Source of the DNA: Eledone cirrhosa
Lineage: Eukaryota
NCBI GenBank assembly: GCA_964016885.1
Contig: OZ024745.1
Span: forward strand, 23,498,001 to 23,562,000
Length of the DNA stretch: 64,000 nt
Direction: 5' to 3'
Below, piece after piece: positions 9,660-60,932 of the stretch (positions within the stretch are counted from its first letter, which is position 1; each line of letters opens with the position of its first letter). Under the pieces are notes generated by a model. The model was given only the letters and a program-made list of their open reading frames with translations, was not told where the DNA came from and searched no databases. A program made the position numbers and the translations under genes.

Positions 9660-9854
9660 GGGAAATGTTCAAGACCCCGACTGCAGAGCTCAAGCCCTTT
9701 CGACGGCTATTTCTGGACTAAATAGCCGTCGAAACGACTTGAGTTCTGCGGTCGGAGTCTTGAACATTTTCCTATTACCCACTCTACTACCCTAAGTATT
9801 GAGTACTCGGGTGCGTTATGGTCCATCTGGTTCCTTACCACACTTCCTTCGTTA
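9660..9854 (+). mobile_element. Hairpin-plus-tail element, copy 1 of 4 (putative Penelope-like terminal remnant)
   Basis: About 52-bp inverted repeat, then a constant ~80-bp tail ending CCACACTTCCTTCGTTA; TA runs on both sides. Confidence 0.75.
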
Positions 9855-9866
9855 TATATATATATA

Positions 9867-10033
9867 TAATTGTTTCTACTTTTGGCACAAGGCCAGCAAT
9901 TAATCCAGTGCATTACTGGTACTTTACTTTATCGACCCCGTAAGGATGAAATGCAAAGTTAACCTCGGCGGGATTTGAACTCAGACTGTAAAGGGCCGTA
10001 ACTCTATGCTGCAAAGCATGGCGTCCGACCCTC
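9867..10033 (-). mobile_element. tRNA-derived SINE (octopod-type family)
   Basis: Reverse complement of the 15804 copy, including B box and TTTCATCCTTACGGGGTCGATAAA core. Confidence 0.9.
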
Positions 10034-10937
10034 TCTATATATATAATACAAATAAATATACATATTATATGCATGTGTGTATGTGTATAGAGTTTAGGTG
10101 ACAACATCTCCTATTACGAACATCACCACCACCACCACTACTTCCGCCATTAAACGCCATTTCCTCCTTAAAAACTACCGCCATTTTATCAGCTACTCCT
10201 CCTCCTCACCCTCCTCCTACTACTACCATTGAAAGCGACAATATCAGCACGTGTAATGGGAATATTTACACTGTAGCCCACGCATCTCACCCCTTGCCAT
10301 CTCGCCATCTCTATCACCTGCCCCTATATATTCTACTACCACTACCACTACTATAACAACCACCTGCTCCGTGCCCTATATCAAACATCTTAAGCACGAA
10401 TACCACCACCACTAACAACATCACCACCACAAACCACCACCACTACCACCTCTACAACCACCACCACCACCACCACCACTACCACCACCACCACAAACCA
10501 CCACCACTACCACCTCTACAACCACCACCACCACCACCACCACTACCTCTACCACCACCACCACAAACCACCATCACTACCACCTCTACCACCACCACCA
10601 CCACCACCACTTCTACAACCACCACCACCACCACCACCACCACCACCACCTCTACAACCATCACCACCATCTTTCACGGTTTTAGAGATTAATACGTTTG
10701 GGTGATAATGTAGTCTGAGGTATCTTGCACATAAGACTGGATTGTCACGGCTGGAATATCAATCAGAGTTAACAATGGGACAAATGACTAATACCACCAC
10801 ATGGATACTTAACCTGCTAGAAATAGCAGCCAGAACCCGTCAGAAATTGACGCAATGAGAGAATATAGTCTTCCAAGTATCTCAAAGAAACAGAATGGTC
10901 AGAACTGGAATGTTTTTGGTTATCTGTCTAATCAACC

Positions 10938-11702
10938 AGGGCTGACCTAGGGCTGACCTAGGGCTGATCTAGGGCTTACCTAGGGCTTACCTAGGGCTGA
11001 CCTAGGGCTGATCTAGGGCTTACCTAGGGCTGACCTAGGGCTTACCTAGGGCTGACCTAGGGCTGACCTAGGGCTGATCTATGGCTTACCTAGGGCTTAC
11101 CTAGGGCTGACCTAGGGCTGATTAGGGCTTACCTAGGGCTGACCTAGGGCTTACCTAGGGCTGACCTAGGGCTGACCTAGGGCTGATCTATGGCTTACCT
11201 AGGGCTTACCTAGGGCTGACCTAGGGCTGATCTAGGGCTTACCTAGGGCTTACCTAGGGCTGACCTAGGGCTGATCTAGGGCTTACCTAGGGCTGACCTA
11301 GAGCTTACTTAGGGCTGATCTAGGGCTGACCTAGGGCTTACCTAGGGCTGACCTAGGGCTTACCTAGGGCTTACCTAGGGCTGACCTAGGGCTTACCTAG
11401 GGCTGACCTAGGGCTGACCTAGGGCTTACCTAGGGCTGACCTAGAGCTTACTTAGGGCTTACCTAGGGCTTACCTAGGGCTTACCTAGGGCTGACCTAGG
11501 GCTTACCTAGGGCTGACCTAGGGCTGACCTAGGGCTTACCTAGGGCTGACCTAGGGCTGACCTAGGGCTTACCTAGGGCTTACATAGGGCTTACCTAGGG
11601 CTTACCTAGGGCTTACCTAGGGCTGATCTAGGGCTTACCTAGGGCTGACCTAGGGCTGACCTAGGGCTGACCTAGAGCTTACCTAGGGCTGACCTAGGGC
11701 TA
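10938..11702. repeat. 11-bp minisatellite (GGGCTKACCTA)n, about 70 copies
   Basis: Direct reading; the same flanks recur at 13543-13890 with only about 6 units. Confidence 0.95.
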
Positions 11703-13303
11703 CATTAAAACAGCTATCAAAAATCACATCACCACCACCACCACCACCAATAGTACTACTACTACTACTACTACTACTACTACTACTACTACTACTACTA
11801 CTGTTGGTGGTGGTGGTGCTGCCGCTCCTGCTAGTACTACTACTATTATCACCAGCACCATAACAATGACAAGTACACCATCCCATACACCGCCACCACC
11901 GCCACCACACCCACCTCTACTACCACTGTCACCACCACCGCCACCACCGTCACCATCACCACACCCACCTCTACCATCGTCACCAGCACCGCTACCCACA
12001 CCACCGTCAGCGCCACCACCCCACCTACCTCTGCTACCAGCCCCACCACCATCAGCGCCACTACCACTGTCACTACTACCACCACCATCGCCATCACCAC
12101 ACCTACCTCTTCCCCCAGCCCCACCACCATCACCACCACTACCGCTGTCACTACCCCCTCCCCCACCCCACCATCCCTGCCACCACCATCGCCATCACCC
12201 CACCTACCTCTGCTACCAGCCCCACCACCATCAGCGCCACTACCACCACCACCACCACCACCATCGCCATCACCACACCTACCTCTGCCACCAGCCCCAC
12301 CACCATCAGCGCCACTACCGCTGTCACTACCCCCCCCCACCCCACCATCCCTGCCACCACCACCGACAGCGCTATCTAGCGGTAGAATCTTTTGAAGCTG
12401 GTGTTCCAAACAACCACACCCATTCTTTCACATCGATAAACTCAAATATTGTGACACATACATTAACACACACGTGTAAAGACATACACACACACACGTG
12501 TAAAGACATACACACACACACGTGTAAAAACCTATACACACACACACAGACATGTATGTGAATGATTGTGTATGTGTATGTGTATATATATATATGTGTT
12601 AAGTGTATGAAATTTTATTTATACAATGTATACACATTATATATATATATGTGTATAAATATATACATATATAAATTAATATATAGATATATATTCACAC
12701 GTACACACACTCTATAAACATGATAACAAAGAGATAAATGCCCTCATGCACACACACACACACACACACACACACACACACACACACACACACACACAGG
12801 CACAGGCACATATATATATATATATATATATATATATATATATATATATGTGTGAGTGTGTGTGTGTGTGTGTGTGTATGTGTGTGTGTGTGTGTGTGTG
12901 TGTGTGTATATATATTGAAAGAGTGAAGAATAACATGGTCGGCTGTACAAAAAGGGTTATATATATATATATATATATATATATATATATATATATATAT
13001 ATATATATATATATATATATATATATATATATATATAAACGAGTTTAAATGAGTTGGTAATACAACCATGTAAAGGAAAAAATCATTTTAAAGGCCAATG
13101 TAATTTTATAATCTACACATAAGTTATAGATTATTGGAATTTAATCGATTCTGTATGTTCTGAGTGAATGTCACTTCGTTTCGGTTGCGTTTGGTCACCA
13201 AAATATATTGTTCTTTGGCGGCCAATATATATCTCTATTATGCTTAAATGCTGGCTTAGTGCTGGCAACAATTCAATATAACCAACTAGGGCATTATAGG
13301 ACT

Positions 13304-13465
13304 GTGGATTGGCAGTATCGGTAGAGGGTCTGACGCCATTTATGATCTGAGTTCAAATCACTCCGAGGTTAACTTTCCCTTTCATCCTTACGGGGTCGAT
13401 AAAATAAAGTACCAGTAATACACTGGGATAATTTCTGGCCTTGTGCCAAAAGTAGAAATAATTAT
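13304..13465 (+). mobile_element. tRNA-derived SINE
   Basis: A box TGGCAGTATCGG, B box GAGTTCAAATC and family core. Confidence 0.9.
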
Positions 13466-59250: not shown

Positions 59251-59879
59251 TTATGGTTTCTGATTTTGAACGCAAGACCAGCAATTTTGGGGGAGAGAAA
59301 AATCGATTAAATCGACCTCAGTACGGTACTGGTACTTTATTTTCTCGACCCTGTAAAGACAAAGTTAACTCCGGCGGAATTTGAACTCAGAACATAAAGG
59401 GAGATAACTGTGTTACGAAGTATATTGTCCGACGCTCTATCGATTATGGCGAATAACAACAACAACTATAATATATGTAGATGGCATCTCTGAGTAGAAA
59501 ATAATTGTTTCTACTTTTGGCACAAGGCCAGCAATTATCCCAGTACGTTACTGGTACCATAATTTTATCGACCCCGTAAGGATGAAAAGCAAAGTTAACC
59601 TTGGCGGGATCTGAACTCAGACCGTAAAGGGATGTAACTCTATGCTGCAAAGCATGGCATCCGACCCTCTACCGATACTGCCAATCCATCTCTGAGTAGA
59701 AAATAATTTTCTGCTTTTGGCACAAGGCCAGCAATTATGCTAGTGTATTACTGGTACTTTATATTATCGACCCCGTAAGGATGAAAGGCAAAGTTAACCT
59801 CGGCGGGATTTGAACTCGCACCATAAAGGGCGTAACTCTATGCTGCAAAGTATGGCGTCCGACCTTCTACTGATACTGT
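59251..59879 (-). mobile_element. Three SINE copies (59251-59445, 59500-59688, 59703-59879)
   Basis: Middle copy flanked by direct repeat CATCTCTGAGTAGAAAATAATT, consistent with a target-site duplication. Confidence 0.9.
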
Positions 59880-60167
59880 CAAAATAATGTATATGTATAA
59901 GTGTACACAGACGTTTGGAAGTGTATAGTAGTGTGTATAATTGTGTGTGTGTGTGTGTGTGCGTGTGTTGTATGTGAAATTATGTGTCAGTGTGCGTGCG
60001 TATAAATGTGTGTGAGTGTATCTGTGAGACTGTATATGAGTGTGTGAACACATATTTGTACTGCTGTGTATACATATGTGTGTTAGTGGAAGTTCGTACG
60101 TATGGGGAATACACACACACACACACACACACACACATACACACACACATATATATATATATATATA

Positions 60168-60404
60168 TGACGAGCCGCGGATTACAGAGTCAGGTCAGAT
60201 CGATACGGATCGAACCTTGAGCTGATCAGTGGCGAAACGCGCGTCGCCAACCAATTAACGTAATGAAGGAGTAACCAATCGTCCTTGTTATTTTATTTCA
60301 CTATAATACACTCTGTCTAGCTCTACACCCCAACACTGAAGTGAACCTAAACATCGAGTGCTCTCCCGGGTGAACCTACAGTAACTCCAAGTTACACTCC
60401 CTGG
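60168..60404 (+). mobile_element. TA-flanked insert beginning inside a hammerhead (extended stem II family)
   Basis: (TA)n-TGACGA-GCCGCGGATTA...TGATCAGTGGC-GAAA-CGCGCG-TC^; C3 and the 5' strand of stem I are lost. Confidence 0.65.
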
Positions 60405-60449
60405 ATATATATATATATATATATATATATATATATATATATATATATA

Positions 60450-60692
60450 ATAGAAAACGAAAAATCAGTGATGCATCTGAACTCAATTTATTGTGCGTTA
60501 CAATTGTTTCGCCGGCGGACAGCTCGAGACGCGATCATTGTGTGGATCTGTCTGATTCTGGACCCGCAGGTTCAACGGACACGTCTAATGATTTCGGAGC
60601 ATATTCTCTCACAATTATATCATACTCTACTCTGTAAGAGCATAGGGTGCTCAACCGGCACACCGCCTATGGAAGCATTTTAGCTACCATCA
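60450..60692 (-). mobile_element. Diverged relative of the 2.4-2.8 kb hammerhead element
   Basis: Minus strand CGAGCTGTCCGCCGGC-GAAA-CAATTG-TA-ACGCAC-AATAAA...GCATCACTGATTTTTCGTTTTCTA-(TA)n parallels 2720-2800. Confidence 0.6.
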
Positions 60693-60790
60693 GACACACA
60701 CACACATACATATATATATATATATATATATATATATAATAATAATAATAATAATAATAATAATAATAATATATATATATATATATATAA

Positions 60791-60932
60791 AACGAAGGAA
60801 GTCTGGTAAGGAACCAGATGGACCATAACGCACCATAGTAGTCAATACTTAGTGTAGTAGAGTGGGTATTAGGAAAATGTTTAACCCGACGGCAGAGCCC
60901 CAGCTCTGACGTCGGAGTTAAACATTTTCCTA
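60791..60932 (-). mobile_element. Hairpin-plus-tail element, copy 4 (about 29-bp arms)
   Basis: Family tail, then TAGGAAAATGTTTAACCCGACGGCAGAGC-CCCA-GCTCTGACGTCGGAGTTAAACATTTTCCTA; (TA)n both sides. Confidence 0.75.

Follow-up and report, generated by a model that had tools for sequence, protein, structure and literature searches.

A stretch of 64,000 nucleotides (nt) from Eledone cirrhosa (GCA_964016885.1, contig OZ024745.1, forward-strand positions 23,498,001 to 23,562,000; the whole stretch is called the window below) contains four short elements in which two inverted arms are accompanied by a tail on one side only, which raises the question of how the second arm of such an element is made. 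The elements are likely to be 5′-truncated products of an endonuclease-bearing Penelope-like element (PLE), or of a non-coding derivative of one, inserted in TA repeats, (TA)n. The reading favored here, to which a probability of roughly 0.55 is assigned, is that two target-primed complementary DNAs (cDNAs), one begun from TTCCTA and the other from TTCGTTA, were joined at microhomology.

Anatomy of the four copies

The copies lie at 9660 (c1), 14313 (c2), 24153 (c3), and 60790 (c4), where a preliminary description prepared from the letters alone had located them (giving 60791 for the last), and BLASTN at word size 7 returned no fifth copy in the window. Their parts are listed by position and strand.

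9660..9719, minus strand: tail-less arm of c1 with the loop (9713-9719); its outer end abuts (TA)n
9720..9774, plus strand: tail-bearing arm of c1, with a hammerhead-like 3′ half, ending in TTCCTA
9775..9854, plus strand: 80-nt tail of c1, bulged hairpin at 9782-9803
14313..14392, minus strand: 80-nt tail of c2, bulged hairpin at 14364-14385
14393..14445, minus strand: tail-bearing arm of c2, 0/53 differences from its partner arm
14446..14506, plus strand: tail-less arm of c2 with the loop (14446-14453)
14465..14487, within c2: putative ribozyme-like parts, namely GAAA at 14465-14468, a possible stem III at 14468-14486, and a predicted cut after GTC at 14487
24153..24178, minus strand: tail-less arm of c3, outer end about 6 nt short
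24179..24194, no strand: 16-nt filler of c3, GTT followed by a TA repeat; it resembles the tail-end/target junction at 24301-24315 and may have been templated
24195..24226, plus strand: tail-bearing arm of c3
24227..24306, plus strand: 80-nt tail of c3, bulged hairpin at 24234-24255
60790..60869, minus strand: 80-nt tail of c4, hairpin at 60841-60862 with one pair broken
60870..60901, minus strand: tail-bearing arm of c4 and the 3-nt centre (60899-60901)
60902..60932, plus strand: tail-less arm of c4, TTCCTA followed by (TA)n

Each copy is built of two arms in inverted orientation plus a tail of 80 nt on a single side, set within (TA)n (4/4), such that an inverted 5′-truncated copy is joined head to head in all four and the homologous tail lies outside the inversion (4/4). 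The unpaired tail, first estimated at about 80 bp, measures 80 nt in every copy, with 2-10 differences per 80 positions between any two copies. The total insert comes to only 140-195 nt per copy and holds neither an open reading frame (ORF) nor a direct pseudo-long terminal repeat (pLTR). The arms are about 53-55 nt long in c1 (nine differences in 56 columns), 53 nt in c2 (none in 53), 26 and 32 nt in c3, and about 29-31 nt in c4 (the earlier estimate was about 26-54 bp). A nearly fixed outer end, TAGGAA/TTCCTA, with c3 falling short, had also been described; it is found in c2 and c4, where it adjoins (TA)n directly, is one base off in c1, and is about 6 nt short in c3, in which some 45 other bases separate the arm from (TA)n. 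Overall, (TA)n abuts seven of the eight outer ends, the tail end runs into it in all four copies, and both outer ends of the element finish in TA, with T instead of A at the tail end of c4. The centres differ among the copies, as had been noticed: the four different centres comprise a 7-8-nt loop containing GTCCAG inside a GACGGCTA/TAGCCGTC stem in c1 and c2, a 16-nt filler flanked by two GAGCTC motifs in c3, and 3 nt in c4.

Co-variation of the arms

The eight arms of the four copies were compared over the 30 columns common to all of them. Arms of the same copy differ at 4, 0, 3, and 4 of these columns in c1 to c4, respectively (mean 2.75), against a mean of 8.4 between copies, and pairing by locus is the unique best among all 105 perfect matchings. 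The tree of arms proposed in the preliminary description, in which arms should pair by locus, was built with FastTree and contains neither a left-arm nor a right-arm clade; the expected pairing is recovered for c2 and c3, but c1 and c4 are weakly resolved. Likewise, the copy-specific variants reported from both arms of a copy do co-vary, but those at 14399-14405 and 14415-14418 recur widely as alleles throughout the family. Given such family-wide alleles, co-variation indicates a shared template or subfamily and is not proof that one arm was copied from the other. The comparison supports the derivation of both arms of one insertion from one template. A separate observation concerns c1, whose arms differ at 9 of 56 columns, yet the tails of c1 and c3 differ at only 2 of 80 positions, which may reflect quicker change in the hairpin or two templates. 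A-to-G editing was rejected as the source of the c1 arm differences, the exchanges being, by eye, mostly C/T and G/A.

The family in public sequencing runs

Part of c2 is held by 14 of 24 listed public runs, with no RNA run among the listed runs that hold it, and five of the 24 were used for a survey against the c2 tail and one arm. Matches were obtained for 13,113 contigs of run X1, 22,025 reads of X24, 39 contigs of X4, and one contig of X5; the family is a high-copy animal repeat, and summed depths were not taken as copy numbers. X5 and X8 contain one contig each that is identical to c2, and these were not counted as independent because they may represent the same locus or stray DNA. An exact 31-nt pattern from the tail had no match in viral contigs and none in metagenome contigs. 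(TA)n stands directly before 14392, the internal TAGGAA end, in 3,441 of the 22,025 X24 reads, 73 contigs of X1, and three contigs of X4, and from the 3,441 reads it follows that the fixed outer end is a property of the family. There are also subfamilies with a different tail end (1,342 reads depart at 14325) and with a different arm (2,477 reads depart at 14398).

At the inner end of the arm, 2,443 reads of X24, 95 contigs of X1, and two of X4 depart from the reference at 14442 and follow the loop in the CTGGAC direction before turning heterogeneous; a further 52 X1 contigs depart at 14445. Sequence upstream of GTCCAG is heterogeneous and AT-rich, with a consensus agreement of 0.37-0.58. The main opposite-strand joint connects a tail-bearing piece ending at 14398 with a full tail-less arm from 14442 (8 contigs in X1; 78 reads with 6 starts in X24), and weaker joints end at 14355, 14370, 14392, and 14414 (5-14 reads and 2-3 starts, in X24 only). 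In another X24 joint, from 14313 to 14392 (32 reads, 2 starts), the tail end meets the inverted tail-less end, that is, tail to tail. Pile-ups of molecule ends in X24 at 14445 (7,145) and 14454 (6,092) were rejected as biology because they coincide with AATT in a restriction library.

A proposed origin from two target-primed cDNAs

In the favored reading, both ends of a cut TA repeat would prime reverse transcription at two fixed RNA sites 80 nt apart. The cDNA begun at the internal TTCCTA site would become the tail-less arm, and the cDNA begun at the TTCGTTA end would become the tail and its arm. Each would terminate early, with GAGCTC and the vicinity of the GTCCAG loop as the usual stopping points, and short stretches of complementarity or filler DNA would then connect the two 3′ ends. 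Copying of both arms from the same or a sister RNA would explain why they co-vary within each copy, why the outer end is constant and the tail confined to one side, and why the centre varies.

This reading is favored over the fold-back of one tail-primed cDNA by the direction of the loop, the joints, and the c3 filler. Single arms enter the loop in only one direction (CTGGAC), and the loop in this natural direction sits on the tail-less arm in both stem-centred copies (c1 and c2). The joints link a tail piece lacking the arm to a complete tail-less arm, so the tail-less arm had no template in the tail piece. The filler of c3 resembles the junction of tail end and target, as if both ends had been open at once.

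A purified PLE, Poseidon_Ac, nicks and extends both strands in vitro, and its reverse transcription begins within the RNA at two sites between which the tail lies; the protein is a predicted dimer, and ribozyme cleavage is not needed (PMC11167929). Poseidon_Ac belongs to another clade, however, and the inverted arrangement is not derived from the two starts in the accessible text of that study. Twin and dual priming of L1 likewise yield inversions, in which two target-primed cDNAs, one with an internal start, are joined (PMC2837659). The L1 variant is occasional and comes with an internal deletion, whereas the internal site is fixed here and the arms mostly overlap as a long duplication. A literature search, with most subscription papers outside its reach, returned no paper that derives the inverted arm of PLEs from two primings.

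The tail hairpin and the probable link to Penelope-like elements

The unpaired part of the copies had been likened to the 3′ tail of PLEs, and the likeness is borne out by the one-sided tail, the published PLE layout, and a bulged hairpin within the tail, all of which support a link of this family to PLEs. Insertions of endonuclease-bearing PLEs show the same head-to-head inversion, palindromic junction, one-sided tail, and microsatellite target (PMC8557442; PMC3846280), and opposite-strand pairs of hammerheads are described as arising from truncated PLEs (PMC4209133).

The tail hairpin, CTCTAC-loop-GTATTGAS, occurs four times in the window, once per tail, against 0.01 expected, and lies 7 nt behind the tail-less end; it may act as a start signal. 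Double changes are found in four of the eight predicted pairs among eight aligned hairpins. In 30 kb of non-repetitive sequence, a relaxed form of the motif turns up 12 times compared with 2.4 in shuffles, the motif and its register window having been chosen after the fact. In the supplement of PMC8557442, the Hydra-2_Amil consensus carries the same hairpin flanks downstream of its hammerhead and Hydra-2_Ajap carries a variant, and the hairpin could not be clearly placed in the other four of the six Hydra consensuses. It is a resemblance and no published defining feature of the Hydra clade. Hydra-2_Amil, Hydra-2_Ajap, and Hydra-1_Obim of that clade share with the present family the (TA)n target and a bulged CTC..GAG hairpin downstream of the ribozyme, 26 of the 27 families in the clade are tabulated with a (TA)n preference (PMC8557442 supplement), and the present family's stem II ending in CGAAAC resembles Hydra-1_Amil and Penelope-2_NV. 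In contrast, no extended similarity to the six Hydra consensuses was seen by eye, the possible stem III of the family exceeds in length those of the Hydra ribozymes listed there, and ten short DNA motifs gave no family match in the consensus set of that supplement as accessible.

A hammerhead-like half

The centres of c1 and c2 had been compared to hammerhead stem II followed by the GAAA box, and this comparison stands in part. Read toward the tail, each arm presents TAGCCGTC, then GAAA, then a possible stem of 6 pairs closed by a GAGCTC loop, and finally GTC, the same order as in the 3′ half of type I hammerheads. The long perfect GACGGCTA/TAGCCGTC stem seen in c1 and c2, on the other hand, is largely a product of inversion around a small 5-6-bp stem, since single arms in the public runs show no continuation into GACGGCTA beyond the loop. 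In c2, GAAA is at 14465-14468, the 6-pair stem was identified by inspection, and GTC, as the NUH triplet, is at 14485-14487. It is plausible that the arm holds such a 3′ half (the 3′ strand of stem II, GAAA, a possible stem III, and GTC). Of the hammerhead that a terminal repeat would carry, only the 3′ half is seen, and the loose-end consensus shows at most 30 letters. Read depth has no step at 14487, and the copies are thus not preferentially truncated at the predicted cut.

In one loose end of X4 (two contigs), a 5-nt complement of TAGCC lies 23 nt upstream, where the view stops; it is a candidate for the genuine 5′ strand of stem II. A permuted (SGC-type) hammerhead is without support, because no CTGANGA lies on either side or strand of any copy. 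A tRNA-type short interspersed nuclear element (SINE) was also considered, and its A and B boxes could not be placed by eye. ARAGORN gave no matches.

Other fold-backs and repeats in the window

Two fold-backs unrelated to the family of c1 to c4, at 3420-3880 and 5158-5571, have full CTGATGA-GAAA cores, one-sided tails, and the matching hairpin, which lies 8 nt behind the tail-less end in the former and about 5 nt behind it in the latter. They, too, count in favor of the PLE link. In the fold-back at 3420-3880, CTGATGA is at 3792, GAAA is at 3820, and the tail is about 110 nt long; its tail-bearing arm is short (about 50 nt) compared with the other piece (about 300 nt). This short arm (3530-3580) ends at most 1 nt from the predicted cut after 3830, and the other arm reads 250 nt further, as if the tail-bearing arm were a copy of self-cleaved RNA. 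In the fold-back at 5158-5571, each arm is about 150 nt long and contains a hammerhead core; the centre measures 17 nt and the tail about 90 nt, and there is a bulged hairpin near 5489. Further bulged CTC..GAG hairpins occur on the minus strand at 49340-49970, about 110 nt before a (TA)n junction, and at 54745-54786, and isolated hammerhead-like cores with short stems occur on the plus strand at 50385 and 23585.

The window also contains an AT-rich, near-perfect palindrome of about 380 nt (50642-51019; arms 92% identical, no spacer), tandemly arrayed 64-nt units that are about 96% identical to one another (1-2035), and a SINE-like repeat of about 166 nt at 9869-10034 and more than 15 other places, one copy of which begins 15 nt past the c1 tail.

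Alternative origins of the second arm

A single tail-primed cDNA could fold back at stem II or at GAGCTC, copy itself, and then be resolved 80 nt short of where it began, always at the same site. This is close to the preliminary description, in which the second arm was synthesized from the first by fold-back at stem II or GAGCTC, and self-priming of this kind has been proposed for PLEs, with palindromes at head-to-head junctions interpreted accordingly (PMC3846280). Co-variation and palindromic junctions would be accounted for, and the c4 centre can be read on the tail-bearing arm if two substitutions are allowed, but the predicted loop orientation is opposite to that of c1 and c2 and no joint with an arm-lacking tail piece could result, two points on which the preliminary description is not supported. 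As the fixed outer end would need an extra rule besides, such an origin is judged very improbable. A less simple fold-back retains two primings and forms the second arm from the tail-less cDNA at a TATTT/AAATA (or TAATT/AATTA) stem; the tail-primed cDNA would stop at the internal site, and the self-copied cDNA would anneal to this short tail cDNA at TTCCTA/TAGGAA. The direction of the loop in c1 and c2 follows exactly, so these two copies fit equally well here and under two separately copied arms, and both the identical arms of c2 and the halt of the commonest arm-less joint at 14398, the end of TAGGAA, speak for it. It is considered unlikely, given that the centres of c3 and c4 are not clean cis hairpins (a 16-nt filler and a 2-3-nt loop), that in the neighbor at 3420-3880 the duplicated arm stops no more than 1 nt from the predicted ribozyme cut and 250 nt separate the arms, and, as a weak point, that the 14414 joints represent read-through past the internal site.

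The hairpin-plus-tail unit might instead be a mobile RNA of which a few masters are copied whole, the likeness of the arms being due to descent or gene conversion. Stretches of X4 identical to c2 have depths of 52-164 compared with 2-11 for other contigs, which speaks for masters, yet each of the four copies has a different centre, in thousands of reads the arm does not lead back into a second one, and each master would still need an origin, leaving this a distinctly unlikely account. Inverted arms that start with TA-GGAA inside TA repeats also recall a TA-targeting miniature inverted-repeat transposable element (MITE) or foldback DNA transposon with GGAA terminal repeats. The 80-nt homologous tail outside the inversion in 4/4 copies, with which the two ends of the element are not terminal inverted repeats, together with the variable arm length and the commonness of single arms, largely refutes a DNA transposon, to which hardly any probability is given.

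Several results weigh against the favored reading of two target-primed cDNAs from a PLE with a ribozyme half. The loop orientation comes from two copies only, and recombination between arms can flip it. X24 is a restriction-digest library with an AATT cut at 14442-14445, the joints are the author's reading of a table, the main listing of the second run table showed no joint, and the reads in the CTGGAC direction were not traced letter by letter into the tail. As to the ribozyme, CTGANGA, the 5′ core, is absent within about 100 nt of any of the four copies on both strands and from the loose-end consensuses (at most 30 letters each), and the loose-end views contain no conserved sequence upstream of the arms. 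The stem III region and the tails fold no better than shuffles (z from -1.36 to +1.31 in 8/8 stretches; 0.48 for the possible stem III of c2), Rfam gave no match at gathering score, and the one match of a full-hammerhead pattern in metagenome contigs is a chance match in apparently coding DNA. As to the PLE link, the hairpin motif and its register window were picked after the data were seen. The tail measures 80 nt rather than the 30-40 bp described for PLEs (PMC8557442), and an insert of just 140-195 nt with no ORF and no direct pLTR also differs from insertions of endonuclease-bearing PLEs. No PLE ORF was recognized by eye among the 181 ORFs of the window, in which the sole fragment resembling a reverse transcriptase is of the long interspersed nuclear element (LINE) type, from the broken frames of a non-LTR retrotransposon (55948-57646, minus strand).

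Meaning of the one-sided tail

Non-coding derivatives of PLEs have already been published (PMC7229834; bioRxiv 10.64898/2026.07.22.740005): the animal non-LTR retrozymes are non-coding, carry type I hammerheads, and have a proposed origin from PLE pLTRs. The present family differs in that neither tandem monomers nor a complete ribozyme was seen in it, and the window holds no tandem monomers of this family with a full type I hammerhead. For the origin of the inverted-repeat-plus-tail insertions of PLEs, self-priming has been put forward together with a call for tests (PMC3846280), and the question has been set as a task for in vitro work (PMC8557442).

The layout of the four copies is already established as a signature of PLEs, and as elements they are unremarkable repeat remnants of a class that has been described before. 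In a family whose copies are numerous and short, with a constant internal end and a loop that is asymmetric, two primers can be separated from fold-back by a simple count of the side on which the loop lies and of where the tail-bearing arm stops. What is added here is this countable test, in which the loop side and the arm-less joints argue against a simple fold-back. More tentatively, and at less than even odds, twin priming may be the normal mode of integration of these PLEs. A dimer of the reverse transcriptase would then prime both ends of the TA repeat a few bases upstream of the bulged hairpin, this family would spread from RNAs that no longer possess the catalytic half of their hammerhead, and the arm and tail would be the footprint of a two-primer intermediate, not of self-priming.

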